Source: an uncultured Gammaproteobacteria bacterium (GTDB lineage: Bacteria; Pseudomonadota; Gammaproteobacteria; Steroidobacterales; Steroidobacteraceae). Taken from it: a stretch of DNA of 64,000 nt. Made by a program: the position numbers and the translations under genes. The stretch covers positions 11,609 through 75,608 of the forward strand of contig CAVVKU010000017.1 in assembly GCA_963748995.1 (NCBI GenBank), written 5' to 3'. How positions within the stretch are numbered: the first letter of the stretch is position 1; each line of letters begins with the position of its first letter. The notes beneath the pieces are model-generated. The model did not search any database. It was given only the letters and a program-made list of their open reading frames with translations, and had not been told where the DNA came from. Positions 33,190-59,031 of this stretch are shown here, piece by piece.

Positions 33190-33257
33190 GCCATCCTTCT
33201 TGAGTGGAAATTTGGATGAGTTTGTCCGGCCATTGTGGCCGCGATGCGTGATTGTTT

Positions 33258-33283
33258 TGTTACACATCTGTCTGTTACACATC
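33258..33283 (-). repeat. 11-bp direct repeat (15-bp period) in the tpsA / exbB-like intergenic region
   Basis: The plus strand reads tgttacacatc at 33258-33268 and again at 33273-33283. The coding strand reads GATGTGTAACA x2. Flanked by small hairpins CCGGC-T-GCCGG and GGCCA-CAA-TGGCC. Confidence 0.6.
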
Positions 33284-33307
33284 GATTCACGCCGGCAGCC
33301 GGTTGTC

Positions 33308-36300
33308 TCATTGCGGCCGCGCCTTCGTGCCTTCGTGTTTGAGGCACTCGAGGTCATCCGGCTTGCAATCCGCTTCGCCGAGGCCGGTGACGAAGACGTT
33401 TAGCCAGCCGATCGCCGCGTCAGCCACCGGCGTGCCGCCGGAATTTCCGGACGAGGCATTGAAGTTCTCCGCCGCGGCCGCGGTCGATCCTGCCGTCGAG
33501 GAGGCCCCGGCGAAGTTCGCGCCGAGTGCAGGCGGCGCGAGCGGCACGCCGACCGAAGTGCCGGAGACGGTGATGTTGTTCGCGCCGATGACCGCCGTCG
33601 CCGCGACCGTCAGATTGCCGGCAACGATGCCGGCATCCCCGGCATTGACCACCCCGCGCGGCGCGAACAGGTACACATTCCCGGGGCTCACGCCGGGCGT
33701 GGCCGCGAGCGCTTCGATACCGCTGCCCGCGATCGCCGCCCGCAGGCTCGTGGTCGGCTGTCCGTTGCTGTCGTAGGCGATGTTGACCTCGGGCGCGGAG
33801 ATCGAGGTTTTTGCGCCGGCCCCGGCATCGATGTTGCCGTCGGTGCTCCACACGGTGATGTCGCCGCCATTGGCCGCGAACAGGCGCGACTGGTCGATCT
33901 GCAGGTCTCCGTAGGTGAAGGTGCTGACGTTACCCGTGGTCGCCGCGACGATGCCGAGCTGATCGGGCTGCTTGTCGATGCCGAAGCTCGCCGGTGCCAG
34001 CGCGAGTCCTGCGTCGATGCCGCCGCCGGGAGCGAGCAGGGAAACGTTGCCACCCTGCTCGGTGTAAATCTGGCTGAAGTAGAGGTTGATATTGCCCTGG
34101 TAGGGGTTGGTCGACCCGGCCGCCGGGTTGGCGCCCGGGAACAGCTTGCTGATCGCCGCGAACGCGCCGCTGAAATCGCCGTTCCCGGACGCGGCCTCCT
34201 TGCTGCCGTAGTATTGCAACAGGTCGAAGAACAGGTCCTCGACGTAGACGCGCTGCAGCTCGGGACCGATCGCATTGAAGATCCGCTTCGCCTGTGCGGC
34301 CGTCAGGCCGCTGAGGTTGTCGATGCTCTCGATGTAGGAAGTCAGATTCGAATCGAACTGGCTCGAATTGTCGATGTAAGTATTGATGAAGGCAGCATAT
34401 TGCGCGGGCGACGCGGCGCCGATGCCGGCTTGTACGCTGATGTTCGCACCCGTCGAAGGCAGGACCGGATTCACGAGATTGGCGCGGGTGATGATGCCGT
34501 TCGAGGTGCCCAGGTTCACGTTGCCGCCGGCGGTGAGCTCGAGCTCGCCCGGTCCGTCGATCGCGATGCCGCTCGCGTCCGCCAGCACCTGCCCGCTCGC
34601 CACGCGCTCCTGTGGGTAGGTGACGTTGCCGCCGGCGAGGATCGAGGTGACATCCGATGAGCTCAGATTCTGCGCGACGAGATTGAGGCCCGAGATGTCC
34701 CCGCCCGCGACGATCTGTACGGGCTTAGCGGCCCAGATTCCATCGGGCGTACCGGTGCTCAACGGGAAATCGATGCTGCCGTTCAGCGCAACGATGCGCA
34801 CCGGCTGAAGAGTGCCCGCTGCATCGGCGGCGGCGTAGATGGGGACCGCAGCGTGCTGATCGGGCAGAGTCAAAGACAGCGCGCCCTCGATATCGCTATA
34901 GATGCCGAGTCCGTTCTGATTGACAGGGGAGCCCGCGGAGGGAAGGCCGCGCGGATCCGCGTCCGGGACGATCAGCACGTCGGCACTGCCAACCGTGATG
35001 TTCTGATTCGCAAAAACCTGCAGATTACCGCTCGACGACGGCGACGTGACGAGGCTGCGGCTTATATTGACGTTGCCGCTGAGCGCCACCAGATTGACCG
35101 AGGACGGCAGCGTGTCGAGCACGCCCCCGCCGCCGGGGGGGAACGGCTGCACGCCATTTGCCGAGAGAAATGAGCTCGAGATCGCGTTCCCGACGGCAAT
35201 CGACTCATCATCGAGCGTCACGCTGCCGCCGACCGCCGTCAAATTCGCCGAGGAGTCCGCGCCATAGGTCGAGAAATATACGGGAGCGGGGGTGACCGGT
35301 TGAAAGATGCCCTGCGCGAGCAAGGTGGGATTGAAGATTTCGGCCACCTGCACGTTGCCGCGTGCCGTGACCGCGAGACTCGCATCGCCGAGGCCGATGA
35401 TGGGCGCCGCCCCTGCCGTGCCGCCGTTGAGGGTCGCGGGTGTCGGGCCCACGTCCGCACCGGCGATCAAGCTCAGTTGACCCCGGCCCACATCGTAGCT
35501 GCCTCCGAGGATCGAGCCGCCCGCGGCGACGATGAGATTGCCGCCGCCGAACACCTCCGGCGCACTCACGCCCGCAATGGCCCCCCCGACCGGCACGCCG
35601 ACCGTGGCGATGGACACCGAGAGATTGTCGATGTCACCGCCGGCTCGGATCGCGACGTTGCCGCCGGCCAGGGCGCCGATGCCCTGCTGGAAATCCTGGA
35701 AATTGGTGGTCCAGGACGTCGCCAGGGCGGGAGCGATGCCATCGTTGACCGCCGAGCCCAGGCGCCACTGCCAGGCATTCACGAATTGATCGGTGGGCGC
35801 ACCGAGCACATCCCCGGCGACGCTCACCTGGATGTCGCCGCCGCCGATCGGATAGGCAAGCGGCGGCGCACTGCCGCGGCCCAAGCGGCCGGTGGAGAAC
35901 ATCACCCCCGGCTCGGCGACGCCGGCCGTGTAGAGCAGCGCCGCCTGGCTGCCGAGAACCAGATCTCCCGACGCGCTCACGTCGATGAACCCATCGCCGG
36001 TTCGCACCATCGTGGGCGCATAGTCGCGGCTCGTGACGGCGCTCGTTGCACCGATCGATGCCGCGCAGAGCGCGTCACAAAGGGTCACGGTGCCCGGATT
36101 CGCGGCATTCGGTGCGAGCACCGCCTGCGGATCCGCTGCCGTGAAGTCCGCACCCGCGACGATGCGATAGGACCACGAATCCGATGCCGTGGTCGGCAGG
36201 GTGAATGCGCCGGTCCCGGAGGTCGCGGCGAACCCGTCGGAGAGCGAGGCATCGAATGTGATCCCGCCCTGCGCGCGCAAGGTCAAGACTCCCGGCACGT

Positions 36301-39300
36301 TGTCCGCGCCGAAGCGCCAGGTATAAAGATTCCAGGGGGTGTTCAGGGTCAGGGCACCGGTGGGATTCGCCGCACTTACCGCCGCGTCGATCTCGACGCC
36401 GGGCTCGAGCTCGAAGCCGCAATTGCAGGCGCTCGCGGCCGCCGCGGTGATCGCTGCAGCGGGCCCTGTCGAGGCGGCCGTCATGAACGCCGTTGCGTCG
36501 GACTGATACGTGCTCATGTCCTGACTCTCGATCACCCCACTCGTATTTTGATATACGTGATTTGCCACCAGGGCGGTGCGGCTCGCGCCCGCGATCCGAC
36601 CTGCCAGCGCTATTCCGCCGGTGCCGTCGAGCCAGCTCTGCACGGTGGCGAGCGGGGCGCTCAGCAAGACGCTCCCGCCCGCGCCGGCGGCGCCGTCCGC
36701 GCTCGGACCCGCGCCGCTCACGTTGATCGTCGAGCCGGCGTTGACGAGGATCTGGCTCGTGCCGCTGCCGGCCGCGGCGTCCCCGCTTTCGAGCGTCACG
36801 GTGCCGCCGCCTTGGCCCGCGAGCGTCGCATGCGCATCGATGCTGCCGTTGACGATCACGTTGTTCGCGGCTGCCAGCACGACCTGGCCGCCATGGGCGC
36901 CGGAGGCATCGATCAGGGCGCCCGCATTTACGAGCACGCTACCCTGGTCGGCCTCGAGCTCGACCTGCGAGGCGGTGACCGCATTGGCATCGTTGCTGCC
37001 GGCCGCAAGAACCTCCAAGTCCCCGGGCCCGCGTAGGCGCGCCGTGCGGGCGCCGGTGAAGCCGCCGGCGTTGAGCAGTAAATTGAGTGCATCGAAATCG
37101 AACGCCCGAGCGTCGATGCTGAAGGATCCGCCCTCGCCTGCGGTGCCTGACCCCGCCAGGTTGCCCGCCACCACGACGCTGCCCCCCGTTCCGCCGGTTC
37201 CAGGCGCGGACAATGAGAGCGAGCCGGCCTCGCCGCCCTTGCCGGCGCTGACATCGATGCTGCTGCCGCTTGCGAGCGTGATATTGCCGGCAGATGCGAG
37301 CAATACGGACCCGCCGGGGCTCGCGACCGACACGCCGTCGTACTGCTGAACAACTCCGGCGACATTGATCGAGCCACCGCTCTCGATCGACAGATCCCCG
37401 CTCGTCGAGGTCAGGCCCACACGCCCGGAGGGCAGCTCGATCTCCGTGGCCACGTCGATGCTGGAGCCCGTCACGCTCAAGGAACCACCGAGAGCCGCCG
37501 CCGCAAGCGCCGTGCGCTTTGCCGGCGCCAGCAGCGATACCGCGCCGTTTGCCGTCATTGAGAGCGAAACGTCGGCTGCGGTGGTGATCTGTGAAGCGCT
37601 CAGCGACAGGCTCCCGGCGGTGCCCAACGCGCTGCTGGCGGTGGCCGTCAATGCGTCGGTGGCGCGCAGGACGACCAGATCGAATCCGCTCGCCGTCACC
37701 GACCCGCCGTTGAGAATGATATTTGCTGCGTCCAGCCGCAGCGTCCCCGTGCCCGCGCTGCCGGCTGCGAAACTCGTTCCTTGGCTGTTCTGCAGCGTGA
37801 TCGACTTGCTTGCGTTGAGCGTCGCCACATCGTTGGTGCCGACATCGACGAACCCCGGCGCATCCACGATGATGTCCGAGGCATTGGCCGTCACGCTGCC
37901 GTTCATGTCGATCGGCGCCGCGCTTACCAGCAACAGGCTGCGCAGGCTCGCGCTGCCCAGCAGCGCCGAGCTCAGCAGCGTACCCGTCGTGTTGGGCACG
38001 GCGTTGCCGAGGAGAATGCCCGAGGATTGCACCGCGAGATCCCCGCCGGCGAGCGACAAATGGCCCGCCGTCGCCACGTTGTCCGTGGCCTCGAGGTACA
38101 CCGAGCCGCCCGGAGCGGCGAGCGTCGAGCCGGCGGCGAGATCCAGGATGCCAGCCTGGCCTGCGGGGTTTACTCGCGTAACCGTACTCTGCAGCCCAGC
38201 GCTCACATTCAGGAATGCGCCATCGCCGGTAAGCGAAAAGATTTGGGAGCCAGGCGCCGATCCAGCCGCGGTGACGGAAGCGCCGCCCTCGACGGTCACC
38301 TGGTTCAGCGCCGTGAGTATCACATCGGGTGCGGTTAGGGCGGCGCCGGAGCCGATCTGCACAGTCTGGGCTGTCGTCGTGATGGAACCGGCGTTGTTCA
38401 AGCCGCCGAGGAGCAACGTCTGTGCGCCGAGGGCGTCGAGGCTCCCTGCGGTCAACACGATCTGCCCGGCCTGGCCGGCTACGGCGGTCGGTGCGACCAG
38501 GATATCGGCGCTCGAGATGTCCACCTCGGCGCCAAGGCCGCCCTTCGGCGCCGTCGTGTCGAGCGCTCCGCCCAGCGTCAGTGCGTCGCTCGCGACCAGC
38601 GCAAGCACGCCGCTGTCGAGCGGCAGGCGCGGCGACGACACGTGGGCGCTTTGCGCCTGATTCGCGAAGAACTCATTCGCGCTCGTGATCGTGTACTGCG
38701 CCTGTTGAAGTACGATGGAGGCTGGAACGACCTCGAAACCGCCAGTCCGCGATTCGCCGTATGAGCCGCCGAACGGCGTGCCCGCGACCGTCTGGTATCC
38801 GGAAATGATGTCGCCGCCGCCCAGCACCGGTATCACCTGACTGCTCTGGATATCCTGATAGCCGGAAGCCTGGGTCACGAGGAACGCGCCGGGCAGCAGC
38901 GCATAGCGCGCCGGCAGCAGCGTGTAGACTCCGGCGGCCAGTCCCTGCATCCCCGAGAGATAGACCGAATCCCCGACCTGCAGGGTCGTGCCGTTGGAGA
39001 TGTTCGGATCGTATGGCGACACCCCGCCGCGCAAGCTCGGCAGGATCGCGAATTGTCCGGGGCGGCCCCCGTTCGTGGAGCTATTCGACAGCACGTCATT
39101 CGTGCCGCCGGTGCCGTCGACCCATTCATAAGCCTCGAGGTCACCGCCGCCCGCCACGTCGATGGTGGCGCCCTTGTTTACATTGACTTTCGCGCCTCGC
39201 AAGGTGACCTGCTGAGACGGCGGGGCGATGCCGTCCGTGCCGTAAATCACGGAGTTGCCATTCGGCAGCGGGTATACCCAGTCGATGCCGCCTTGGGTGG

Positions 39301-42300
39301 TGCCGAAGGGGATGCTGAGGCCGCTGGCGGAGGTCGAGGTGAGACTGCCGGCGCCAAGGACCAAGGAGGCGGCGTCCACGGTGATATCGCCGAAGGGCGC
39401 CCGCAGCACACCGTCTTGGATAACCGTGCCGGCGCTCAAGGTCAAGGCGCCGCCGGCCGATAGCGGCGTGGCCGCGGTCCCGGCGCTCGCGTTCACGGTG
39501 ATCACGTTGACCGTGGGCGCGGTAACGCTGCTGGGGTCCGCCGAAATCACGAACTGCGACAACGTGGTCGGATAGATCTGCTGCGCCGTCAGATTGAGAT
39601 TGCCATCGGTGAAGAGCGCGCCGTCGAAGGTGGTGGCCGTGTCGCTCGTGCTGGTCAAAAGTCCCCGGACCCGCAAGTCGCCGCTGGAGCTGAAGCTTGC
39701 CGTGCCGATTCCCTGCAGCGCGCTGGTGCCGTACAGCTCGATGAAGTGTCCGCTCACATCGAGTGTCCCACCGGTCGGGGCGCCGGGGGCACCGATGGCG
39801 TTCGCGGCAGTGACGTTGTTCAGGAACGTTACATTCGAATCGCCGAACTCGACGTACGGCGCAGTCACCCGGGCAGTCGACCCGGGGCTGACCGAATACA
39901 CGCCGGCGTCGAGCGTGATGGATTCGGCGGCACTCAGGGTCACGTTGCCGACGAAGTCGATGCGCCCCGGCAACGGTGCGTAATCGGAGAAGATTGAGAG
40001 CGGCGTCGCCTTGAGGTTGACGATGTCGAAGCCCGCGGCCGCGAGAGCGCTCGCCGATACATAGGCGTTTTCCGCGAGCGCATTCGGGATGCCGAGACCC
40101 GGATCGATGACGATGGGCGGTTGCGCGGCGCTCACGATGATCTGGCTCGAGGTGATGCCGGCATAGCCGGGGAACGAGGTGCTCCCGCCATATAGGCCCG
40201 GGGCGGTCGCGCCGAGATCATTGCGGCCGCTCGTGTCGAGGGTGAGGCTGAAAGTGCCGCCCGACGGCTGCGGCAATCCAGGGCCCGCCTTGCCGGCGGC
40301 CGCCTCGAGCTGGCCGCCGAGCTCGGCGCCATCGGATGCAGTCAAATCGATCAGGCCGCCCCCGGAGGCGACTTGCTCGCTGCGCAGCGCGCCGCCGCCG
40401 GGAGGCGTCTCGGCAATCACCCCCGCGGAGCCCGCCACGTCGATCAGAGAGCCCGGCAACAGTTCGATGAAGCCTCGGGACGCAGTCAAGGTCACAGTCC
40501 CGCCAGGCAATATCTCCCCGGTCTGTTGTCCGAGGCTATTGGGGAAGATCCTCGGCACCCCGGCTGCATTGAGCACCGCCTGCGGGCCGAGCCAAATCGC
40601 CTGGGTGTTGTTGTAGGTGGCTTCCGGTTGACTCGCAAGCAGCGAGAGAGAGATGGTCCCCCCGGGAGCGCTGAGCGTACCATCCTCGATGATGCGGACA
40701 TCGGACGAGAGGGAAAGGCTCGCGAGCGGATCCGCCAGGATTTGCGATCCGGCGCCTATGGTCAGCGAGGGCGTCGCGTTCGTGACGTTGAAATAATTGA
40801 CGCCGTTGACGCTTGCGGTGCTGGTCTCGCCGACCTGGCTGAGCGACAGGCTCACCGGTTGCCGGAGCTGATCCGGAAGCGTGGCAATTCCCGCGGTCCC
40901 GATCAACGATGTCATATTCCGGAGGCCGGCATACCCTGCGGGCAGTACCAGGTTGCTCTGCCGGAGGGTGACCGTGGTGTCGTCCGCGAGCGTGATGCCG
41001 CCTTGATCGGCAGTAAGTGCATAGTCACTGAAGCCGCCTGAGGCGAGCTGCGCGGGCGTCATCCAGAGAGTCGCGGAGTTTCCTCCGCGGCAGTTGGCGG
41101 CAGCGATACATACCGCAGAATCGGTGAGATCGAGCGTGCCGCCCTCATATATTCCATAGCCCGTGAGCGTGGCGCCCATCGCGATGCTCGGAGTGCCGCC
41201 CTGAAGCGGATCACCTTGCAATCCCGCGCCAATGCTGATCGTGCCGCCGGCACCCGCATTCAACCCGCCGCCGGTGGTGATCTGCCCACCGCCGGAGACG
41301 TCGATGCGGCTGCCGGGCGCAAGCTCCACGCCAGGGTTCGCGCTATTGATGGAAACGGCGGCAAGCGAGACATTACCTCCGTTGATGAAGAGCGGCACGG
41401 TATTGCCGGTGGGATAGAGCAGCGGATTGTCGTTGACCCATTCGCCGTCCGCGGATAGCGAAGCCTTCGGACCGAGGATGAGCGCGAAGGGCTCGGCCAG
41501 CGCCGCTCCGGCCGTCGGCTCTGCGAATGCGGTGATGTTTCCCCCGGGCGCAGTGATCTGGCCCTCGATGTCGATCGCACTCGCGGTCACGCTGAAGTTG
41601 CCGCCCGCGGGAAGCTCCACGGCGACCGAGGCCGGCAAGAGGATCTTGCCATTGGCATAGATGGTGACCGACCCAAACCCGCCTGTGCCGAGCAGCTCGG
41701 GCCGCAGCACAGAGGCCGTGTAGCTCGCCGGCAGCGGATCGCTCGACGGATTGAGGGCGGTGCCGTTGGCATTGAGGAGGGTCGGCAGCACCAGGCCGGG
41801 GGTCACCGTGACATTGTCGACCACGAAGTCCGCGTTGGCCTCGCCGGGCGTGCCGATGACGAGCGAGGCGGGCAGCGGCACTTGGTTATACGGCTGATAG
41901 GTGTTGGTATCGTAGGGCGCATTGATCGCGGCAACCGCCGTATCCGGATTGCGCTGATACAAGCCGCTTTGCACACTGGCGTCCACCGTCGAGTCGAGCA
42001 CGAACTGGCGTGCCGACACGCTGAGGCTTCCACCATTCTTACCCTCGATGTAACCGGGGGACCAGGTTGGTTGGAGCGCCTCGTAGGCGGTCGATGTGCC
42101 CCACTTGGGGTCACTCAGAGTCGCCGAGTTGGCGATGCCGACGTACGACACATTCGGGTTTGCCGAGCCAATCGGCACCACCTGCCCGGTGGTCGTGAGC
42201 AGATCGGTCGTCTTCAAGTATCCGCCCGTATACTGGATTTGCCCGCCCGCCACATCGACGGTCGAGCCCGGTGCCAGAATCGCATCCCCGGCGGAGTTAA

Positions 42301-43777
42301 TTGCGATGGTGCCGCCGTTCAAGTTTCGCTCGACCACGTTGTAGCCGATGGCCGCGACCTCGCCGCTGATGTTGGCGAGGGGCGTGCCGGTGCGGATGTC
42401 CACGTACACCGTCTGGCTGCGCAAAGGCCCGTTCTGCTGCAACGGGCTGTCCGCGAGCTCGTAGCCGCGCAGCTGCACCGGAATGACATTGTCGCTCACC
42501 GGCAGCACGATGCTCGCGCCCGACACGTCCAGGTCGGCGCCCGAGGCGACATAGACGCGGCTGCCGTCGGGACTTGCCGTGTATACGCCGGGGGACTGTG
42601 CAGCCGTGATGCTGAGCTGCCCGCCGGTCGCGCGGGTGACGCTGTCCGACAGGATCTGCACCCTCGCGCCGGTCATCGCAATTCGCGAGGGCAGCTGCGG
42701 AACGCTGTTGACGGTGGTCGCGGAACTCGCATCGAGAGTGACTTCGGTTTCGCTGTTCGCGCCCAGAGTGAGCTGTCCGCCGGTCCCGTCCTGGGGCGTT
42801 CCGTTGGTTTGACTGAGAGTGCCGCTCACGCCGGCAGCGCCCGACGGACCGATGGTGCCGTGGTCGACCGCCTGCAGGTAGATGCTGCCGTTCTCGTTGA
42901 TGCTGGTCGTCGCCGACACCCGGCCCAGCTGATTGACGGCAAGGCCGGCGAGGGTCACGTTGCCATCGGTGGCGAGGATCTGGCCGACCAGTTGTTCGGG
43001 TGACTTGACGGCCGAGTTGCTCGCCGCACCGTTCGTCACGGCCCCGCCCGTGCCTCCGACCTGTACCAGAAGGCCGCGCAGCGACGGATCCGATTGCGTC
43101 GCAAGGTAGATGGTATCGCCTGCGGCAAGCATGGTTTGGCCGCCCGGCGTGCTGATCGAGCCCTCATTGGTGATGCTCGGTGCGAAGATCAGGATCTGCC
43201 CCCCGGAGGCCGTCTGGAGGCTCGCGCGCGGGGAGATGGTCACGCCGCCCGTCGTTCCGGTCGAGAATGCCTGGAACGCGGGATTGCCGTTCGAGCCCGG
43301 GGCGATGAGCCCGCCGGATACCGCCGCGTTGGCAATGTCCAGCGTGGAGGCAAGCAGCCCGCCAACGTTCACTTGGGCGCCGCTCCCGAACACGATGCCG
43401 TTCTGATTGATGAGGAAGACCCGGCCGTTCGCGTTGAGGGCGCCGAAGATCTGGCTCGGATTCACATCGTTGATCTGGTTCAGGGCCACGGCCGAGGCGC
43501 TCGGCTGCACGAATTGCACCGTGCCGTTGGCCGAGATGTTGAAGCTCTGCCAGTTCAAGGTCACGTTGCTGGAGGTCTGGTTCACCGTGAGCTTGGAACC
43601 CGACTGAGTGGCGGTCGCCGTGCCCGCACTCACGAAACCCGCGGCACCGAATTTGCTGTTGATGCAGGCGCTCGCGGCGCACGGCACCGGCAGGGCAGTC
43701 CCCGCCGATGCCGCGGACCACGCGAACGGCAGGCAGGCGACGTTCAGGAAGGTGAAAAAGCGGGGTCGTTCGCGCAC
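33308..43777 (-). CDS. giant two-partner-secretion exoprotein (TpsA, filamentous-haemagglutinin family, 3489 aa)
   Basis: GTG start at 43777 with GGGAGGA upstream, 13 nt after the tpsB stop. Signal FFTFLNVACLPFAWSAASA. TPS domain LNWQSFNISANGTVQFVQPSASAVALNQINDVNPSQIFGALNANGRVFLINQNGIVFG. Thousands of residues of G/A/S/T-rich beta-helix-like repeats. The C-terminal region resembles DUF3739 (...GGDITVWSTDGNIDAGAGAKT...). Confidence 0.9.
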   Translation of the reverse strand: MRERPRFFTFLNVACLPFAWSAASAGTALPVPCAASACINSKFGAAGFVSAGTATATQSGSKLTVNQTSSNVTLNWQSFNISANGTVQFVQPSASAVALNQINDVNPSQIFGALNANGRVFLINQNGIVFGSGAQVNVGGLLASTLDIANAAVSGGLIAPGSNGNPAFQAFSTGTTGGVTISPRASLQTASGGQILIFAPSITNEGSISTPGGQTMLAAGDTIYLATQSDPSLRGLLVQVGGTGGAVTNGAASNSAVKSPEQLVGQILATDGNVTLAGLAVNQLGRVSATTSINENGSIYLQAVDHGTIGPSGAAGVSGTLSQTNGTPQDGTGGQLTLGANSETEVTLDASSATTVNSVPQLPSRIAMTGARVQILSDSVTRATGGQLSITAAQSPGVYTASPDGSRVYVASGADLDVSGASIVLPVSDNVIPVQLRGYELADSPLQQNGPLRSQTVYVDIRTGTPLANISGEVAAIGYNVVERNLNGGTIAINSAGDAILAPGSTVDVAGGQIQYTGGYLKTTDLLTTTGQVVPIGSANPNVSYVGIANSATLSDPKWGTSTAYEALQPTWSPGYIEGKNGGSLSVSARQFVLDSTVDASVQSGLYQRNPDTAVAAINAPYDTNTYQPYNQVPLPASLVIGTPGEANADFVVDNVTVTPGLVLPTLLNANGTALNPSSDPLPASYTASVLRPELLGTGGFGSVTIYANGKILLPASVAVELPAGGNFSVTASAIDIEGQITAPGGNITAFAEPTAGAALAEPFALILGPKASLSADGEWVNDNPLLYPTGNTVPLFINGGNVSLAAVSINSANPGVELAPGSRIDVSGGGQITTGGGLNAGAGGTISIGAGLQGDPLQGGTPSIAMGATLTGYGIYEGGTLDLTDSAVCIAAANCRGGNSATLWMTPAQLASGGFSDYALTADQGGITLADDTTVTLRQSNLVLPAGYAGLRNMTSLIGTAGIATLPDQLRQPVSLSLSQVGETSTASVNGVNYFNVTNATPSLTIGAGSQILADPLASLSLSSDVRIIEDGTLSAPGGTISLSLLASQPEATYNNTQAIWLGPQAVLNAAGVPRIFPNSLGQQTGEILPGGTVTLTASRGFIELLPGSLIDVAGSAGVIAETPPGGGALRSEQVASGGGLIDLTASDGAELGGQLEAAAGKAGPGLPQPSGGTFSLTLDTSGRNDLGATAPGLYGGSTSFPGYAGITSSQIIVSAAQPPIVIDPGLGIPNALAENAYVSASALAAAGFDIVNLKATPLSIFSDYAPLPGRIDFVGNVTLSAAESITLDAGVYSVSPGSTARVTAPYVEFGDSNVTFLNNVTAANAIGAPGAPTGGTLDVSGHFIELYGTSALQGIGTASFSSSGDLRVRGLLTSTSDTATTFDGALFTDGNLNLTAQQIYPTTLSQFVISADPSSVTAPTVNVITVNASAGTAATPLSAGGALTLSAGTVIQDGVLRAPFGDITVDAASLVLGAGSLTSTSASGLSIPFGTTQGGIDWVYPLPNGNSVIYGTDGIAPPSQQVTLRGAKVNVNKGATIDVAGGGDLEAYEWVDGTGGTNDVLSNSSTNGGRPGQFAILPSLRGGVSPYDPNISNGTTLQVGDSVYLSGMQGLAAGVYTLLPARYALLPGAFLVTQASGYQDIQSSQVIPVLGGGDIISGYQTVAGTPFGGSYGESRTGGFEVVPASIVLQQAQYTITSANEFFANQAQSAHVSSPRLPLDSGVLALVASDALTLGGALDTTAPKGGLGAEVDISSADILVAPTAVAGQAGQIVLTAGSLDALGAQTLLLGGLNNAGSITTTAQTVQIGSGAALTAPDVILTALNQVTVEGGASVTAAGSAPGSQIFSLTGDGAFLNVSAGLQSTVTRVNPAGQAGILDLAAGSTLAAPGGSVYLEATDNVATAGHLSLAGGDLAVQSSGILLGNAVPNTTGTLLSSALLGSASLRSLLLVSAAPIDMNGSVTANASDIIVDAPGFVDVGTNDVATLNASKSITLQNSQGTSFAAGSAGTGTLRLDAANIILNGGSVTASGFDLVVLRATDALTATASSALGTAGSLSLSASQITTAADVSLSMTANGAVSLLAPAKRTALAAAALGGSLSVTGSSIDVATEIELPSGRVGLTSTSGDLSIESGGSINVAGVVQQYDGVSVASPGGSVLLASAGNITLASGSSIDVSAGKGGEAGSLSLSAPGTGGTGGSVVVAGNLAGSGTAGEGGSFSIDARAFDFDALNLLLNAGGFTGARTARLRGPGDLEVLAAGSNDANAVTASQVELEADQGSVLVNAGALIDASGAHGGQVVLAAANNVIVNGSIDAHATLAGQGGGTVTLESGDAAAGSGTSQILVNAGSTINVSGAGPSADGAAGAGGSVLLSAPLATVQSWLDGTGGIALAGRIAGASRTALVANHVYQNTSGVIESQDMSTYQSDATAFMTAASTGPAAAITAAAASACNCGFELEPGVEIDAAVSAANPTGALTLNTPWNLYTWRFGADNVPGVLTLRAQGGITFDASLSDGFAATSGTGAFTLPTTASDSWSYRIVAGADFTAADPQAVLAPNAANPGTVTLCDALCAASIGATSAVTSRDYAPTMVRTGDGFIDVSASGDLVLGSQAALLYTAGVAEPGVMFSTGRLGRGSAPPLAYPIGGGDIQVSVAGDVLGAPTDQFVNAWQWRLGSAVNDGIAPALATSWTTNFQDFQQGIGALAGGNVAIRAGGDIDNLSVSIATVGVPVGGAIAGVSAPEVFGGGNLIVAAGGSILGGSYDVGRGQLSLIAGADVGPTPATLNGGTAGAAPIIGLGDASLAVTARGNVQVAEIFNPTLLAQGIFQPVTPAPVYFSTYGADSSANLTAVGGSVTLDDESIAVGNAISSSFLSANGVQPFPPGGGGVLDTLPSSVNLVALSGNVNISRSLVTSPSSSGNLQVFANQNITVGSADVLIVPDADPRGLPSAGSPVNQNGLGIYSDIEGALSLTLPDQHAAVPIYAAADAAGTLQPVRIVALNGSIDFPLSTGTPDGIWAAKPVQIVAGGDISGLNLVAQNLSSSDVTSILAGGNVTYPQERVASGQVLADASGIAIDGPGELELTAGGNVNLGTSNGIITRANLVNPVLPSTGANISVQAGIGAASPAQYAAFINTYIDNSSQFDSNLTSYIESIDNLSGLTAAQAKRIFNAIGPELQRVYVEDLFFDLLQYYGSKEAASGNGDFSGAFAAISKLFPGANPAAGSTNPYQGNINLYFSQIYTEQGGNVSLLAPGGGIDAGLALAPASFGIDKQPDQLGIVAATTGNVSTFTYGDLQIDQSRLFAANGGDITVWSTDGNIDAGAGAKTSISAPEVNIAYDSNGQPTTSLRAAIAGSGIEALAATPGVSPGNVYLFAPRGVVNAGDAGIVAGNLTVAATAVIGANNITVSGTSVGVPLAPPALGANFAGASSTAGSTAAAAENFNASSGNSGGTPVADAAIGWLNVFVTGLGEADCKPDDLECLKHEGTKARPQ

Positions 43778-43790: not shown

Positions 43791-45515
43791 TCAGAAGCTG
43801 TAGCGCAAGGAAAAATCGATGCGCGAATCGTCTTTGAGTGTCCGTACGCCGGCGCGCTCGGGCACCGCGTAGTCCAGATAGCCGCTGATGCCCTGCGGAT
43901 TATCGAGCCGCACGCCGAAACCACGGCTCCACAGGGTGATGTTCTCGTGCTGCCCCGGCAGCGCATCGATCAGCGTGGCCACTCCGCCGTCGACGAACAC
44001 GAAAAAATACAGCGGCGCGAAAAAACTGCCGACGTGCGGGCCGAGCGGGGGACTGTGCAGTTCCACTCCGCCCGTGGCTCCCGAGTCACCGAGTGCCTCG
44101 GCCTCGAGGTAGCCCCGCACCGTGTCGACACCTCCCAGGGAGAATTGCTCATTGTTGACCAGCGGACTGTCCGACCACTGCGCGCTGAGCCGCTCCTGGA
44201 AGGCGAGTCCCCAGGGGAGCGGCTGCGTGGCGCCAAATCCCATACGCACATAAAAATAGTTGGGGTATGCGTTGTAGCGAGCATTCTCGAATTGATCGCT
44301 GCTGTTGATGAGCCCTCTGACGCCGACGTTGAAGCCGAGCGAGGCCGAGTAGAGAAAGGCGCCGCGGGCCCGGTTACCCGAGTAGACCGCCGACCAGTTG
44401 ACGTACTTGACGGGGGCCGTCACCGCTCCCGGGGTCGTGCTGCTCGCGCTGCCGTTGCTGTCCGGCAGCACCGAGGTGAGCACATCCTTGTAATCCGCGC
44501 CGAGGTTCAAGTTCTGGGAGCCGGTCGCGGAGCTGTCGATGGGCTTGAGCCAGTGCGCTCCATAGATCGAACCCTTGCCGAGCACGCCCAAGGTACCGAG
44601 CGCGAGCACATTGCTATAGGTTCGCGTATAGGAGAGCGCGGCCTCGCTGTCGCCCGAGCCGATGTGCCCGAGATAGTTGGCGATCAGCACTTCGGCATCG
44701 CTCGTGTTCGCGGGCGCCGTCTGATACATGAGCCCGAACGTATCCTGGCGCCCCCACAAATTGTCGTAGCTCAGACCCACCGTGGCGCGATTGGGTGTCG
44801 TGTCCGCCGTGTGCCGGTCGTCGTAGCTCACGAATCCCTGCAGAGGGAGCTTGTCCTTCACATCGAGGTCGACGTCGACGGAGCCGGGCTCCGAGCCCGC
44901 CTTGAGCACCGGAGTCACCACCCGATCGGGGGTCCGCGCGTTCAATTCCGTCAGCTCCTTCTGAAGCGCCGGAAACGACGGTGAGCTGCCCTGCTCGAGA
45001 GCCGGAAGGGCCGCGAGGATCTGGCGGCGCGAATAGTAGCGCTCGCCGCGCACATGCACGCTCTCGAGCTTGCCCTCCGTGACCTTCAGCCGCACGAGCC
45101 CGTCGGCCACTTGCTGCTCGGGAATATCGACGAATACGGCGCTGTAACCCGCGTCCTTGTAGGCCTTCTCGAGCGCATCGGCCGCCTGTTTCACGGTCTC
45201 GATGGTGCGATTCGGACCGAGGAACGGGTACACGGCCTTCTCGATCGCGGTCTGCGGCAGCACCTTCGTCCCGAGAACGCGAAACTCGGTGATGTCGAAC
45301 GTCGCCTCAGCTTTGGCCGCCGGTGGCGCCACGGGCGGCCCAGCCGCTTCGGCACCCTTCGACTGGCCGGTTGCGGCGAACGAAGAGACGCTGATGACCA
45401 TTCCGAGCATTCCCCTGAGGACTCGATGCTTGCCGCGCAAATTGTTGTCTCTGACCAAATAAAATGCAGATAACCGGGTGTTCGACCGGAAGATCCGCCG
45501 AGTCTTTGCATCCAC
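43791..45515 (-). CDS. ShlB/FhaC/HecB-family TpsB outer-membrane transporter
   Basis: POTRA region FDITEFRVLGTKVLPQTAIEKAVYPFLGP...LEKAYKDAGYSAVFVDIPEQ, then a beta-barrel ending ...IDFSLRYSF. Maximal ORF is given. Codon usage suggests the real start is TTG 45440 or ATG 45410/45401. Confidence 0.88.
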   Translation of the reverse strand: MDAKTRRIFRSNTRLSAFYLVRDNNLRGKHRVLRGMLGMVISVSSFAATGQSKGAEAAGPPVAPPAAKAEATFDITEFRVLGTKVLPQTAIEKAVYPFLGPNRTIETVKQAADALEKAYKDAGYSAVFVDIPEQQVADGLVRLKVTEGKLESVHVRGERYYSRRQILAALPALEQGSSPSFPALQKELTELNARTPDRVVTPVLKAGSEPGSVDVDLDVKDKLPLQGFVSYDDRHTADTTPNRATVGLSYDNLWGRQDTFGLMYQTAPANTSDAEVLIANYLGHIGSGDSEAALSYTRTYSNVLALGTLGVLGKGSIYGAHWLKPIDSSATGSQNLNLGADYKDVLTSVLPDSNGSASSTTPGAVTAPVKYVNWSAVYSGNRARGAFLYSASLGFNVGVRGLINSSDQFENARYNAYPNYFYVRMGFGATQPLPWGLAFQERLSAQWSDSPLVNNEQFSLGGVDTVRGYLEAEALGDSGATGGVELHSPPLGPHVGSFFAPLYFFVFVDGGVATLIDALPGQHENITLWSRGFGVRLDNPQGISGYLDYAVPERAGVRTLKDDSRIDFSLRYSF

Positions 45516-45597
45516 TCAATCCGGCACGACGATGGTCGGCCGATTATTTTTGATGGAAGTCGCTCCGGCAGAATGCCTGCGGGTCGACAGGGGGTGG

Positions 45598-45653
45598 ATC
45601 ATCTTGGGTGCGGGTGTCACTGGTGTGATTGAAGTGTGACAATTCAGTAACAT
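45598..45653 (-). promoter_or_regulatory. conserved promoter element copy 1 (upstream of tpsB): three phased repeats + 10 nt + GATGAT
   Basis: The coding strand reads TGTTACTGAAT TTGTCAC ACTT CAATCAC ACCA GTGACAC ccgcacccaa GATGAT. It is about 85% identical over about 50 nt to copy 2 at 48491-48546. Confidence 0.6.
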
Positions 45654-45737
45654 GGCGTTCCATTCCCGAAGAAAGGGCGGCACCCGGAACGCCGCCTGCA
45701 TGGCTTGGGAACGAGCCTAAGTCCGGCGTTCGATGCG

Positions 45738-45774
45738 CCAAAAAGCGGGCCACCAGGTTGCCCTGGTGGCCCGC
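45738..45774 (-). terminator. rho-independent terminator after the PstS-like gene
   Basis: The coding strand reads GCGGGCCACCAGG-GCAA-CCTGGTGGCCCGC followed by TTTTTGG. A second weaker hairpin GGCGGC-N9-GCCGCC + CTTTCTT lies at 45676-45696. Confidence 0.8.
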
Positions 45775-45819
45775 TCGAGTCCTCGTGGACCCGATCCGAA
45801 GTGCCTGGAATTGCCGCGA

Positions 45820-47454
45820 TTAGTTGTTCACGTCGGTCGTGCCCAACAGCTTCTTCTCCGGGGAAGTCGCCGGCAGGTCGGTCGAATCGAACACCGGATA
45901 ATCGCAGTTGTTCACCGTCAAGCTCGCGCTCTTCGTGTACACGTTGACCGGGTTGGTCGCCGCGTAGGCGCTGGTCGACGGAATCGTCGTCACCGGATTG
46001 CTCGCCAGGTATAGACCCGCCGGCGACGCATCGCCCGCCGACAAGCTGCCCTTGTCGGACAGGCTGCCACCGCTCCAAGGAGCAACACCGGTGTAGCCGG
46101 AATTGCTGACGGCGGTGAAGGCAGGATGCCCCAGCTTCGCGAGCAGCGCGCTCGCGACCAGCTTCGGGTTGCCCGAGGGAACCCCGGTGCCCGTCTTGAT
46201 GCTGTAGGCGACGCCGGTGCTGAAGTACGGGTAGACCCCGTTCTGCACGTTCGCCACCGTCGGACCCGACCCGTCGATCGCGATGGCCCGGAACGAGTCG
46301 TTCGCACCGGAGAGGTTGGACGCGGAGATCTCGGCGTTGTTGATGCCGATCGCGAACTGGCTGCCCGGCTCGGCCACGGGGGTATTCTGCCCGGGAAGCG
46401 CCGGAGTGTCGGTGCCCGGCACGTAGTACGGAGTGATGCTGCCGCCCGAGAAAAACGCCTGCAGGCATCCACGGACGCCGCTGCCGCTGCCCGCTGCGAA
46501 CACGTACTGGCCGTCTTCGACCGGAATGTTCTCAGACGGAAGGGTGCTGCAACGCTGGCCGAAATATTCGGACTCGAAGGAGGCCTCGGTGCCCGAGCCG
46601 AAGTCCCGACGGCACAGGTAGACGTTGTTGTCGGCGGGTGAGCTGACGCCGAGCTGGCTCCAGCTGACGATATTCGCACTCAGGAGGCTGGCAACCTGCT
46701 CCTTCGACAGCGACGGAGCATTGGCGGGGCTGTCGGAGGGCGATGTGTAGCCTTCCGCGGCCTGCAGGGCGTAATACGCGTTCTTCGTCAACAGGACGGT
46801 CCAGATCTGATCGAGCGTGCCCACCTTGCTCAGGTAGGTATTGGTGGCCGACGCATTGACCGTGCCGTTGGTGGGCGTGCGCAGAATCTCCGCCTCGACG
46901 TCCGCAAATCCGGCGGTCGGATTCGCATTGATCGTGGCGGTCGCGGGGCAACCGGAATGGTTGGTATAGGCGCCGAGCTTGGTGGTGGCGGCCACGGTCG
47001 CCACCGTTGCGCAATTGGAGTCGGTGATCGCCGCCGGATTGATGAAGCTCAGACCGTTGGCCTGCCCTTGGGCGGTCAGGTACAGCGGTGTAACACCGTT
47101 CACGGATCCGACGTTGGACTCCTTGAAGATCGCGATCGGCGTGCCCGCCGTGAGCGTCCCCGCGCTCGAGGTCACTGCGCCCGAGGCTGAGCAGAAGATC
47201 ATGCGATTGGTGTACGAGGAAGCCGTGCCGATGTAGTACACATCGACGCTGCCGGCGGCGCACAGACCGGTCGGGGCGACCGTGGCGATCAGGCTGTTGA
47301 GGATCGTGCCGTCGACCGCGGTGGATCCGCTCAGATAGACGTTCACGACACTCGAATTGTAGGCGCTGATGTCCAGTGCCGAGGCGGATTGCACGCCCGC
47401 GGTCGCCACCGACAGCGCCAGCGCTGCACGGATGGAATGCTTGAGAATTGACAT
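45820..47454 (-). CDS. secreted PstS-like (type-2 periplasmic-binding fold) protein, 544 aa
   Basis: Signal peptide ...AGVQSASA. YLSGSTAVDG. CRRDFGSGTEASF resembles the E. coli PstS phosphate-clamp segment RRADGSGTSF (from memory). It is much longer than PstS and Cys-rich. Confidence 0.55.
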   Translation of the reverse strand: MSILKHSIRAALALSVATAGVQSASALDISAYNSSVVNVYLSGSTAVDGTILNSLIATVAPTGLCAAGSVDVYYIGTASSYTNRMIFCSASGAVTSSAGTLTAGTPIAIFKESNVGSVNGVTPLYLTAQGQANGLSFINPAAITDSNCATVATVAATTKLGAYTNHSGCPATATINANPTAGFADVEAEILRTPTNGTVNASATNTYLSKVGTLDQIWTVLLTKNAYYALQAAEGYTSPSDSPANAPSLSKEQVASLLSANIVSWSQLGVSSPADNNVYLCRRDFGSGTEASFESEYFGQRCSTLPSENIPVEDGQYVFAAGSGSGVRGCLQAFFSGGSITPYYVPGTDTPALPGQNTPVAEPGSQFAIGINNAEISASNLSGANDSFRAIAIDGSGPTVANVQNGVYPYFSTGVAYSIKTGTGVPSGNPKLVASALLAKLGHPAFTAVSNSGYTGVAPWSGGSLSDKGSLSAGDASPAGLYLASNPVTTIPSTSAYAATNPVNVYTKSASLTVNNCDYPVFDSTDLPATSPEKKLLGTTDVNN

Positions 47455-47496: not shown

Positions 47497-48351
47497 TCAG
47501 GCGGCCGCGCGACGGCGCGCGATGCCCGCCATGCCGAGCAAGCCGCTGCCGAGGAGCCAGATCGCGGCAGGAAGCGGAACCGGCGCGGTGCCACCGGAGG
47601 CGATGTTGTAGGTCAGATCGCCCGTGCTGGAGAGAAACCAGAAGCCGGTGCCGTTCGCGTTCGAATAGCCATTGATGCTGTCCTGATTGCGACCGGTGGA
47701 CACCACGTTGTAGAAGCCGACGGCCTGACCGACGGTCTGCGAATAGTTCGATCCCGCCAGCAAAGTGCCGTTGGACAGAACGCCGGACTCCACGCTGAAC
47801 GTGGCCGAGCCGGTCGTATCGATCAGGTCACCGGTGGTCGGTGCCGCGGACACCCAGGAGGAGATTTCGCTGTTGATTTTTCCCTGCACGCCGCCCAGGG
47901 CGTTGCCCGAGATGACCGGCGTCGAGGAATCCGTCACCACCATGCCGCCACCCGTGAGCGTGCTGGCGCCGAGCACCATGTAGCTGTCATTCGCGACGCT
48001 CGAGCCGCCGAAAATGTTGCCGCCCGCAGCGGTGAAGCCGGCGACCTGGCCGAAGTTGAGCTGCAGAACGTTGCCGCTCGCGCCCGTCGGATTGGTGGCA
48101 AGCGCGAACGCCACGTTCGGCGCGGTCGGCGTGAGCGCGCCGCTCGCGCTGGTGACTTGCGAGTAGTTCACACCCAGGTTGACGACTTCCGTCGTATTGG
48201 CCGCGGTGTTGAACACCGCCAGGTAGAGACCCTGTGAGCCAGGAGGGGATCCCTCGTTGATGGCGACAGGGCCGGTCAACTGGGCATGTGCGGCGACGGA
48301 GGCCAGCGCCAGCGTCACGCCGGCGGCGATGGATTTATTGAGCAACTTCAT
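47497..48351 (-). CDS. VPLPA-CTERM sorting-domain protein
   Basis: Signal MKLLNKSIAAGVTLALASVAAHA. C-terminus TAPVPLPAAIWLLGSGLLGMAGIARRRAAA. Confidence 0.8.
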   Translation of the reverse strand: MKLLNKSIAAGVTLALASVAAHAQLTGPVAINEGSPPGSQGLYLAVFNTAANTTEVVNLGVNYSQVTSASGALTPTAPNVAFALATNPTGASGNVLQLNFGQVAGFTAAGGNIFGGSSVANDSYMVLGASTLTGGGMVVTDSSTPVISGNALGGVQGKINSEISSWVSAAPTTGDLIDTTGSATFSVESGVLSNGTLLAGSNYSQTVGQAVGFYNVVSTGRNQDSINGYSNANGTGFWFLSSTGDLTYNIASGGTAPVPLPAAIWLLGSGLLGMAGIARRRAAA

Positions 48352-48490
48352 GTGTTCTCCCGAACTGTTAAGTGAGTTAGAGGCTTAAAGCTTCACGAAC
48401 CCGAGCGGACAGCCGCGTCATCCCGAATCTGTGATCGATCTCCACTTTGGGACCCTTGAGAAGGAGACCTCCGTCGTGGAATTGCTGGGC

Positions 48491-48546
48491 ATGATCCGGG
48501 GAGCGAGTGTCAACGATGTGATTGAAGTGTGAATATTCAGCAACAC
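48491..48546 (-). promoter_or_regulatory. conserved promoter element copy 2 (upstream of the VPLPA-CTERM / PstS-like operon)
   Basis: The coding strand reads TGTTGCTGAAT TATTCAC ACTT CAATCAC ATCG TTGACAC tcgctccccg GATCAT. The geometry is identical to copy 1. Confidence 0.6.
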
Positions 48547-48698
48547 CGCTCGACGCCGGGCACGCATGCAACTGAGCGGGTGAGTTGCGCCCGAAGCGGC
48601 GAACGCTTCGTAAAACCGTAGCAATTGCGCCTTACGATTCGCCACCTACGCGCCTCGACGAGCGGCGTGCCACGATCTCTGCGAGGGAATACGAACGT

Positions 48699-56648: not shown

Positions 56649-56724
56649 ACCCGCGCTCAGTTGGACACGTGTCGCGCGGGCGGCGCGATCCGGGTCAGGA
56701 CCATTGGCAACAAGGCGGGCGCGG

Positions 56725-56778
56725 CGACGGACATGGCGGCGAAGATCGCAAGTTCATGTTGCGAGGCCGTGACATGCG
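56725..56778. repeat. 54-nt repeat, copy A (leader of the wecA-like gene)
   Basis: cgacggacatggcGgcgaagatcgcaaGttcatgttGcGAggccgtgacatgcg matches copy B at 49/54 positions. Confidence 0.8.
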
Positions 56779-57394: not shown

Positions 57395-58987
57395 TCAGTT
57401 GGGTACGTATCGCGGCAGGCTCGGCGCGATACGCGCCGCGAAGTCCACCAGTTCACGATCCGCGGCTGCCCGATCGCCTCCCGGCGGGATCGGCGCAATC
57501 AATCGCACCAGCGCGCCGTCCGTTCGATGACGCGTCAATGCGTCCCAGAACAGATACCACTTCACGGCGAACTCGTCGGTAATCACGCGTCCGCGCTGCT
57601 GGAACCAATAGTAAACCAGCTCGCGCTGGTCGCCGAGTGTGATCAGCGTGCGGTTGACGCGCAGCGGTTCGCCCGCGACGCGGGCGTCGAGCGTGCGTTG
57701 GCCGAACTCCTCCATCTGCCATCCGCCGCCCGGCAGACAGGAGCGCGGGGAATGCACGGCCTCGCCCTTGCGCTGCGAGTCGTAGTAGGCGATGTACAGG
57801 TTGATGGGATGGCCCGCGGAATTCGCATAGTCGGCCATCAGGTAATCGTCCAGATTCAAGGCATCGAGGTACAGGCCGGCCAGGGGCTCCGGCCTGCCGG
57901 TCCAGCTCCCAAGATCCATCGGATAGGTCGCGAAGCTCTCGCGCTTTGGAAAGATCTCCGCCGGCCGGGGGAACGCCAGCGTCATGACGGCAAAGGCGAG
58001 CAGCATTCCGCAGGCGGCGAGAAACGGTTTGGACAAGGTGCGCCTTTCAATGGGCGCGCCGCGCGGCGAGTGGGCGGGGAACTCGATGCCGAACAGCTGC
58101 CGCCAGGTTCCCGGCTCCCGGCCGATGCGGTTCAACAGGGCTATCTCGCCGAGCATCAGCCCAGCGCTTGCCATGAAGACCGCCCAGCCCTGAAACTCGT
58201 GCAGGAAGCCCTCGGCCATGCCGATGCCCCAGTTCTCCACCATCACCCCGATGGTGCCGACGCGGAAACTGTTCATCAGGACGGTGATGGGGATGCTGGA
58301 GAGGAACAGGGCGATGCGTTTCCATGTCGCGCCCTTGTAAAAGTAGGCCATCAAAAAACCGAGTGTCATCAGCGGAAACAGGTAGCGCAGCCCGTTGCAG
58401 GCCTCGGCCACCTGCAGCTTGTATCCGCCGAGGTCGATCACATTGCCCTCGAGATACACGCTGATGTCGAACAACCGCATGAACAAAACGCCGAGCTTCG
58501 AGGACAGGAGTTGCAGCTTGATGGACAGGTTGGCAAGCACGAACTGCGGCAGCGGCACCATGAACAGCAGAATGAATAGCGGCATGAACAGCAGCCGGAA
58601 CGCTGCCGGACCGGTGAGGGCAAGCACCAGACCGAACACGGTCACCAGATAGGCATACTGGATCAGCGTGTAGACCGTCCCCAGTTGACCCATGACCAGC
58701 AGCGCACCGCCGAGGGTCACCAGCAACACGCCCCACCAGCTTCCGCTGAAGCTGACGCGCTCCAGGCGATCCTTCTGCTGCCAGATGAGGAATGCGGCAA
58801 TGGGCGGAATCAGCAGCGCATGGCTGTACTCCGGGCTGTCGATCCACCAGCCCCACATCCGCGATAGCCCGTCCCAGAAGACACACAGCGAGAGCGCAAA
58901 CGCGGCGCAGACCGCGGCTACCACCGCGGAGGAAAGTCTCCACACCGTGCCGGGAGGCACGGGCGGTGCGAGGGCTTCGACGGACAT
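57395..58987 (-). CDS. exosortase (XrtA/EpsH-like) fused to an EpsI domain
   Basis: EYSHALLIPP, VAEACNGLRYL, LMNSFRVGTIGV, FLHEFQGW. The C-terminal EpsI-like domain has INLYIAYYDSQRKGEAVHSP. Start taken at MSVEAL (ATG 58987). GTG 59074 is possible. Confidence 0.8.
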   Translation of the reverse strand: MSVEALAPPVPPGTVWRLSSAVVAAVCAAFALSLCVFWDGLSRMWGWWIDSPEYSHALLIPPIAAFLIWQQKDRLERVSFSGSWWGVLLVTLGGALLVMGQLGTVYTLIQYAYLVTVFGLVLALTGPAAFRLLFMPLFILLFMVPLPQFVLANLSIKLQLLSSKLGVLFMRLFDISVYLEGNVIDLGGYKLQVAEACNGLRYLFPLMTLGFLMAYFYKGATWKRIALFLSSIPITVLMNSFRVGTIGVMVENWGIGMAEGFLHEFQGWAVFMASAGLMLGEIALLNRIGREPGTWRQLFGIEFPAHSPRGAPIERRTLSKPFLAACGMLLAFAVMTLAFPRPAEIFPKRESFATYPMDLGSWTGRPEPLAGLYLDALNLDDYLMADYANSAGHPINLYIAYYDSQRKGEAVHSPRSCLPGGGWQMEEFGQRTLDARVAGEPLRVNRTLITLGDQRELVYYWFQQRGRVITDEFAVKWYLFWDALTRHRTDGALVRLIAPIPPGGDRAAADRELVDFAARIAPSLPRYVPN

Positions 58988-59031
58988 GGCCGCGAAGATC
59001 GCAATTTCATGTTTCAGGGCCGTGACATGCG
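58978..59031. repeat. 54-nt repeat, copy B (spans the exosortase start codon)
   Basis: cgacggacatggcCgcgaagatcgcaaTttcatgttTcAGggccgtgacatgcg. Confidence 0.8.

Follow-up and report, generated by a model that had tools for sequence, protein, structure and literature searches.

The element under study lies in a block of minus-strand genes on a 64-kb stretch of DNA from a peat metagenome contig, the whole of which we refer to as the window. The upstream part of this block encodes, in order, an exosortase/EpsI fusion, a hexapeptide transferase, a WecA-like transferase, a PrsT-like TPR protein and a 677-aa unknown protein. A divergent pair of DsbA-like genes on the plus strand lies between this part and copy 2 of the element, beyond which follow four genes for a PEP-CTERM protein, a PstS-like protein, TpsB and the giant exoprotein TpsA (Table 1). 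The order PEP-CTERM, PstS-like, TpsB, TpsA is syntenic in every retrieved relative, down to a PstS-like identity of 43%, and those homologues that carry source names belong to Steroidobacteraceae or Gammaproteobacteria metagenome-assembled genomes (MAGs).

The PEP-CTERM gene product matches TIGR03370 with 32.5 bits (cut-off 25.35) and gives a weak match to floc_PepA. The PstS-like protein is ~200 aa longer than PstS, contains eight invariant Cys residues and resembles the solved PstS structures only around the RxxGSGT anion-binding loop (~80 residues), which suggests a disulfide-rich secreted anion-binding protein that may work together with the TPS fibre. In the window as well as in the relatives (P0001–P0099) its gene is always found between the PEP-CTERM gene and tpsBA, usually adjoining a DsbA-like gene. 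For tpsB, a longer GTG open reading frame extending to 45515 and crossing a terminator remnant is unlikely to be real. Directly downstream of tpsA, the region 31381–33357 encodes an ExbB/MotA protein fused to DUF2341 and LamG, followed by ExbD, a TonB-like protein and Porin_5; low-level RNA contigs were observed for the ExbB fusion and the porin.

Further features were noted elsewhere in the window. At 2905–4617, far from the main XrtA-type exosortase/EpsI gene (57395–59074), there is a gene for a second exosortase-like protein that carries a fused CAAX/Rce1-type protease domain. Two minus-strand segments, 56715–56778 and 58968–59031, are identical at 49/54 nt (91%; CGCATGTCACGGCC..GAAACATGAA.TTGCGATCTTCGC.GCCATGTCCGTCG), one located in the spacer upstream of the WecA-like gene and the other across the start region of the exosortase/EpsI gene; the pair may have arisen by duplication of a leader with its start codon, or may be a further shared control element.

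Table 1 Genes, terminators and predicted promoter features at the locus (window coordinates)
Feature	Position	Strand	Remarks
PepA-like VPLPA/PEP-CTERM protein gene	47497..48351	(-)	284 aa; first gene downstream of copy 2
PstS-like periplasmic-binding-protein homologue	45820..47454	(-)	544 aa, Cys-rich
tpsB (POTRA_2 + ShlB)	43791..45401	(-)	536 aa from ATG at 45401
tpsA, giant TPS-domain exoprotein	33308..43777	(-)	~3489 aa; PF05860 TPS, DUF3739; syntenic in all relatives
Copy 2, putative core operator TGTTGCTGAATATTCACACTTCAATCACATCGTTGACAC	48507..48545	(-)	predicted -61 to -23
Copy 2, repeat unit 1 TCACACT	48526..48532	(-)	
Copy 2, repeat unit 2 TCACATC	48515..48521	(-)	
Copy 2, third related unit TGACACT	48506..48512	(-)	
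Copy 2, spacer between operator and hexamer	48497..48506	(-)	10 nt, length fixed, sequence free
Copy 2, predicted -10 hexamer GATCAT	48491..48496	(-)	
T1, strong intrinsic terminator after PstS-like gene	45743..45776	(-)	15-bp GC stem + UUUUU
T2, weak hairpin + CTTTCTTC	45666..45696	(-)	directly upstream of copy 1
Copy 1, putative core operator TGTTACTGAATTGTCACACTTCAATCACACCAGTGACAC	45614..45652	(-)	upstream of tpsB, lineage-specific
Copy 1, predicted -10 hexamer GATGAT	45598..45603	(-)	GATCAT in L017
Remnant of ancestral T1 and post-T1 sequence	45431..45505	(-)	inside tpsB leader, stem decayed

The two copies of the element and their layout

A repeat search of the window revealed two copies of the element on the minus strand, at 45598–45652 (copy 1) and 48491–48545 (copy 2), which on the coding strand read TGTTACTGAATTGTCACACTTCAATCACACCAGTGACAC-CCGCACCCAA-GATGAT and TGTTGCTGAATATTCACACTTCAATCACATCGTTGACAC-TCGCTCCCCG-GATCAT, respectively. 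Both contain the exact 16-mer TCACACTTCAATCACA (minus strand), which has no further match in the window at up to 3 mismatches (0.15 expected by chance). Likewise, position weight matrix (PWM) scans of the 64 kb with 39-nt, 28-nt and 18-nt versions, derived from 13 non-identical examples, yielded no third site, not even a weak one. The repeat search and the shared 16-mer confirm the position of both copies given in the original prediction; the identity between them, put there at about 85%, was measured as 80% (44/55 nt) over 55 nt, and in the copy strings quoted there one base at GAAT/TTGTCAC was counted twice, the rest being correct. The similarity extends from TGTT to 2 nt past the hexamer, indicating that the putative promoter was copied and the transcribed leader was not.

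The best internal repeat of the element is TCACACT-TCAA-TCACAYC, a 7-N4-7 direct repeat that is (nearly) invariant in 14 sequences. Three repeats phased by 11 bp on one helical face had been predicted, with starts at 45614/45625/45636 and 48507/48518/48529. These starts are right in the register chosen there and two of the repeats stand (TCACACT-N4-TCACAYC), whereas the third (TGACACY) fits better at 9 bp, where it matches the repeat unit at 6/7 positions; in the 11-bp register only CAC is common. The upstream TGTTGC shows little likeness to the repeat unit. Profile self-similarity gave z values of 2.9 at offset 9, 2.3 at offset 11 and 2.1 at offset 20, where the offset-11 signal, carried mainly by one unit pair among 22 offsets tested, would not survive correction.

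In both copies a gap of exactly 10 nt, as originally predicted, separates these repeats from the hexamer GAT(G/C)AT, a candidate -10 box. The third unit (TTGACA/NTGACA) equals the -35 consensus at 5–6 of 6 positions, yet with 11 nt between TGACA and the hexamer it is too close to act as its -35. The alignment of orthologs contains no TTGACA-like hexamer 16–18 nt upstream of the -10. Nor does any ortholog have a -10-like hexamer 16–19 nt downstream of TGACA, for which reason TTGACA was rejected as a true -35. Together, the short distance and the missing downstream hexamer point to a promoter layout that requires a protein positioned over the -35 region. This layout is that of a class II promoter, with A(-11) and T(-7) conserved, no -35 at 16–18 bp and the putative operator at a fixed distance, abutting the -35 position. 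The OmpR/PhoB-type arrangement of the original prediction, a -10-like hexamer fixed 10 nt from phased direct repeats and no usable -35, thus holds.

A simple sigma-70 consensus scan left the element uncalled, as the promoter would lack a -35, and flagged T2 alone. Sigma-54-type -24/-12 sites (TGGCAC-N5-TTGCW) were not found at up to 2 mismatches in 45402–45660 or 48352–48560. By eye, sigma-32, sigma-E and ECF promoters were rejected on account of wrong spacing and required bases that are not conserved, and a CRP-like site (TGTGA-N6-TCACA) was ruled out, the two TCACA units being direct rather than inverted.

Transcription is predicted to start near 48484 for copy 2 and near 45591 for copy 1, corresponding to leaders of ~133 nt to the ATG at 48351 and ~190 nt to the tpsB ATG at 45401, respectively. 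The PEP-CTERM leader contains a hairpin at 48393–48434 (minus strand; TCACAGATTCGG...CTCGGGTTCGTGA), ~50 nt downstream of the predicted start, with a nearly invariant TCAC/GTGA and two pairs showing compensatory change in nine species; it is absent from the tpsB leader. On the DsbA-like side of the divergent spacer, the block ATTGCTACRGTT (48611–48640, plus strand) is conserved in all relatives; distinct from the element, it probably serves the divergent DsbA-like gene as its -10 region (TAGCAAT, plus strand).

Conservation, terminators and the origin of copy 1

In all relatives with a PstS-like identity of 50% or more, the PEP-CTERM gene is preceded by a copy-2-type element. The compared species have PstS-like proteins 50–94% identical to that of the window. 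Across 10 species the 39-nt core shows a mean pairwise identity of 86%, compared with 30–37% for the 60 nt on either side, 52% for the 10-nt spacer and 71% for the hexamer. Within 14 sequences 27 of the 39 core columns are invariant, and the stretch from TGTT to the hexamer aligns without a gap. The 24 nt following the core (TGACA) hold three invariant columns only, two of which are A2 and T6 of the hexamer, the two most important positions of the sigma-70 -10 box. All orthologs conform to [GC]A[TA]N[AC]T, with GATCAT, GAACAT and GATGAT among the near relatives and CATCCT and CATTCT among the distant ones. Judged by this alignment, copy 2 marks a footprint with deep conservation. The element is unrecognisable in L038 (8708–9043), the most distant ortholog (43% PstS-like identity), with only the fragments ACTTCGTGACAC...ATTCTGGC left, which suggests that the promoter was remodelled in that branch; the divergent DsbA-like gene is missing there.

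Scanning 185,579 species genomes of GTDB with TCAYACTYCRATCAYNNNNNTGACA yielded 12 matches: four true ones, each from a different related MAG and located at the orthologous position, and eight chance matches in coding DNA of unrelated phyla. A scan of JGI metagenomes with the differently anchored pattern TGTTRCNNAANNNTCAYACTYCRATCA gave four matches, all orthologous or copy 1. On this evidence the element can be regarded as a real and strongly constrained promoter and operator module, specific to one conserved surface cassette.

Copy 1, by contrast with this depth, is present only in the window species, including its strain variants, and in a sister species at 94% (L017). It is absent from the PstS-like/TpsB spacer of eight species (L011, L013, L015, L018, L019, L036, L037 and L038), where this spacer measures 25–150 nt and contains the T1 hairpin only. 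A T1-equivalent hairpin is found in all relatives; in the window T1 folds with -39.6 kcal/mol (z -6.5), carries a U5 tail and lies ~90 nt upstream of copy 1. The T2 hairpin (45676–45696), with -12.6 kcal/mol and a z of +1.0, folds no better than shuffles and is absent in the strain variant L009 and in L017. In L009, a contig from one peat metagenome, a 74-nt indel (L009 4959–4962 versus window 45664–45737) removes T2, a strain-level polymorphism. The distance from the T2 tail to copy 1 is ~12 nt, leaving no room for another promoter. Of the strong terminator that the original prediction placed immediately upstream of copy 1, the strength applies to T1 and the adjacency to the weak T2.

In a BLAST search with the window spacer, the segment 45431–45505, which folds no better than shuffles, proved homologous to T1 and the sequence following it in L015 and L011. 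Since this tpsB-proximal part of the spacer corresponds to the T1 region of those relatives, the region between the stop codon of the PstS-like gene and the ancestral terminator gained an insertion of ~330 nt. It consists of a new copy of T1, T2 (in the window species), copy 1 and a further ~95 nt. The copy 1 core differs at 2/39 positions between the window and L017, compared with 84% identity over the whole spacer. By these spacer comparisons, copy 1 is a duplicated putative promoter that split an operon.

Contigs covering the PEP-CTERM and PstS-like genes were detected in six peat or wetland metatranscriptomes. In four runs the 3'-most PstS-like RNA contig ends at 45784–45810, shortly after the stop codon (45820) and ahead of T1, and no RNA contig crosses T1, T2 or copy 1. 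This is consistent with copy 1 beginning a new transcription unit, as originally predicted: T1 separates the upstream genes, and their RNA contigs stop there. For tpsB and tpsA (12 kb) only spurious partial matches were obtained in runs covering the PEP-CTERM and PstS-like genes, where assembled contigs cannot prove absence. As genuine tpsBA RNA contigs were lacking where PEP-CTERM/PstS-like RNA was present, copy 1 appears to be far less active than copy 2 or to have been uninduced in those samples. In the metatranscriptome search neither leader had a match in any indexed RNA run: the window RNA contigs reach only to 35 nt inside the PEP-CTERM open reading frame, and in the relative L032 an RNA contig ends 49 nt before the ATG, leaving 118 nt to the predicted start. 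The shared module and the conserved synteny make co-regulation of the fibre genes (tpsBA) with the PEP-CTERM/PstS-like pair plausible.

Candidate regulators and alternative readings

Head-to-tail 7-N4-7 repeats with a period of 10–11 bp are the signature of OmpR/PhoB-family operators, exemplified by TCACAGC-N4-TCACAGC for PhoP of M. tuberculosis, GTTCACC-N4-GTTCACC for PhoP of S. coelicolor and CTGTCAT-(A/T)4-CTGTCAT for PhoB of E. coli (PMC4832192, PMC4415409); for tri- and tetra-motif arrays a higher binding affinity is reported (PMC4832192). The element shares the 7-N4-7 layout, a TCACA/TTCAC core and extra phased or near-phased flanking units with these operators, but differs in its third unit, which is placed at a 9-bp instead of an 11-bp offset, and in having no cognate regulator gene nearby. 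It also resembles the cre tag of CreB/BlrA, TTCAC-N6-TTCAC (PMC13214185), to which TTCAC-ACTTCA-ATCAC corresponds at 9/10 specified positions, invariant across species; this is a resemblance only, and the conserved footprint of 39 bp is far larger than the cre tag. The PEP-CTERM pepA genes of Aquincola and Zoogloea are under sigma-54/PrsK-PrsR control, with an RpoN-dependent TGGCAC/CTGCTT promoter for Aquincola pepA (PMC9850573). The target is of the same kind here, a PepA-like PEP-CTERM gene next to a PrsT-like TPR gene and an exosortase, and a terminator likewise follows the PEP-CTERM unit. In contrast to those systems, TGGCAC-N5-TTGC is missing from both spacers, which indicates that the clade of the window uses a different promoter type.

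No Trans_reg_C protein is encoded in the 64-kb window. Searching with PhoB by tblastn gave no OmpR-type regulator in the window or the orthologous loci, nor within 10 kb of the cassette in relatives. For OmpR/PhoB-family operators a nearby cognate regulator is common and not obligatory. The only two-component genes of the window, 38 kb from the element, are those of a LytS-type kinase and a LytTR response regulator. The region in question (5739–7780) encodes the LytS-type histidine kinase (5739–6926) followed by the response regulator, whose receiver (6839–7780) and LytTR domain (7293–7709) lie in different frames; the split is due to either a frameshift or an assembly error.

Could the operator be a Pho box at which phosphorylated PhoB activates both units under phosphate limitation, as the original prediction had it? 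We give this a small chance. In E. coli phoA and pstS the last Pho box unit ends 10 nt before the hexamer; the element has exactly this distance, together with phased units that replace the -35. Copy 1 starts with TTGTCAC (CTGTCAC in L017), a 6–7/7 match to CTGTCAY, and a PstS-like gene belongs to the operon here too, as its second gene, with the PstS-type RxxGSGT anion-binding loop. Against these points, the units of the ancestral copy 2 match CTGTCAT at 4–5/7 each, the invariant core being TCACA and not TGTCA, and the spacers ACTT and AYCN are not restricted to A/T. Taken with the 7-N4-7 layout, this makes the family-level reading reasonable and leaves PhoB in particular unsupported, all the more as no OmpR-type regulator was found in the window or within 10 kb in relatives, and phoBR or pst genes are not nearby. 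The strict motif occurs once per genome in the four related MAGs and not across a regulon; at that stringency it does not behave as a regulon box, and the predicted regulon did not emerge from the genome scan. The likeness of the 544-aa, Cys-rich PstS-like protein to PstS over ~80 residues makes it a weak argument for phosphate control. A somewhat greater, still minor, chance falls to a regulator of another family, activator or repressor, for instance of the LytTR type (6839–7780), or to TTGACA being, after all, the true -35 to an unrecognised -10. The kinase and regulator pair as the only two-component genes of the window, the near-consensus match of the third unit and the self-similarity peaks at offsets 9 and 20 would all fit. 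The alignment of orthologs, read directly, contradicts the -35 variant as described above. The LytTR gene lies far off and is split over two reading frames, and LytTR sites have a layout of 9 bp/12–13 bp, which the clean 7-N4-7 repeat does not resemble.

Two further readings concern the function of the copies rather than their ligand. In one of them, to which we also assign a low probability, only copy 2 would function, with copy 1 left as a neutral relic of a segmental insertion, and tpsBA would still be expressed through read-through or from another start. The youth of copy 1, confined to two species, and the lack of tpsBA RNA contigs where the upstream genes are covered agree with this. Against a neutral relic speak the core of copy 1, better preserved than the spacer around it, and A2 and T6 of its hexamer, which were kept in both species despite a changed middle. 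Read-through is at odds with the strength of T1, where the RNA contigs stop, and the decayed stem of the old terminator beyond copy 1 is what one would expect of a sequence that copy 1 transcripts have to cross. The other reading, a structured RNA leader or a dispersed or mobile repeat, would account for a repeated non-coding sequence in two leaders but is hardly credible. The element has no Rfam match at gathering or permissive thresholds, its single strands fold no better than shuffles (z -0.7 and +1.7), and alifold (-6.3 kcal/mol, positive covariation term) gave no conserved structure. Nor does it behave as a dispersed repeat, being confined to this one locus, with two copies in the window and a single one in each related genome; here the original prediction held, the true matches of the genome and metagenome scans all being orthologous sites or copy 1.

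Our preferred reading, with a probability of roughly 60%, is that the element is an activator-dependent sigma-70-type promoter module that was duplicated to split an operon, its regulator being most likely of the OmpR/PhoB family. A weak -10 (GATSAT in the window, CATTCT in distant relatives) would be placed exactly 10 nt downstream of a 39-bp operator, with no usable -35. The operator would consist of the 7-N4-7 repeat (TCACACT-TCAA-TCACAYC), TGACACY over the -35 position and the conserved upstream TGTTGC..AA block. A tandemly bound factor, most likely a winged-helix response regulator of the OmpR/PhoB family encoded elsewhere in the genome, would recruit RNA polymerase. The conservation, the geometry, the duplication history, the termination at T1 and the lack of further copies are shown by the data, and we infer the start sites, the activation and the identity of the regulator. 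The ancestral copy 2 would drive the PepA-like PEP-CTERM and PstS-like genes, and in the relatives tpsBA would depend solely on read-through of T1. In the ancestor shared by the window species and its 94% sister, the ~330-nt insertion set a second copy of the putative promoter between the old T1, since decayed, and a re-created one, and tpsBA would thereby have gained its own start while still under the same regulator. Several observations speak against this model: with no T at position 1 the hexamer makes a poor -10, the third repeat does not keep to the 11-bp phase, genuine tpsB/tpsA RNA contigs are missing over 12 kb where the PEP-CTERM and PstS-like genes are covered, and an OmpR-type regulator is absent from the 64-kb window and from the 10 kb around the cassette in any relative.

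Meaning for the surface cassette

A response-regulator-type class II promoter is a textbook mechanism, so the value of the element lies in annotation and evolution rather than in concept. As a tentative synthesis, which we hold at somewhat less than even odds, the 39-bp operator with its -10 may be a module dedicated to the single locus of a four-gene surface cassette in Steroidobacteraceae-like bacteria of peat and soil. The window would then capture a recent copy-and-paste of this promoter, in which the operon was split by a duplicated terminator and both halves stayed on the same response regulator. The window offers a clean and datable case of operon splitting through promoter duplication combined with duplication and decay of a terminator. 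The 39-bp operator, the predicted -10 and the two predicted starts provide a testable cis-regulatory handle on a conserved, uncharacterised cassette, whose hosts are abundant uncultured Gammaproteobacteria of peat and soil. The element further indicates that sigma-54/PrsR does not always control PEP-CTERM 'floc' genes, and, if the regulator were PhoB, phosphate scarcity in peat would be linked to floc and fibre formation.
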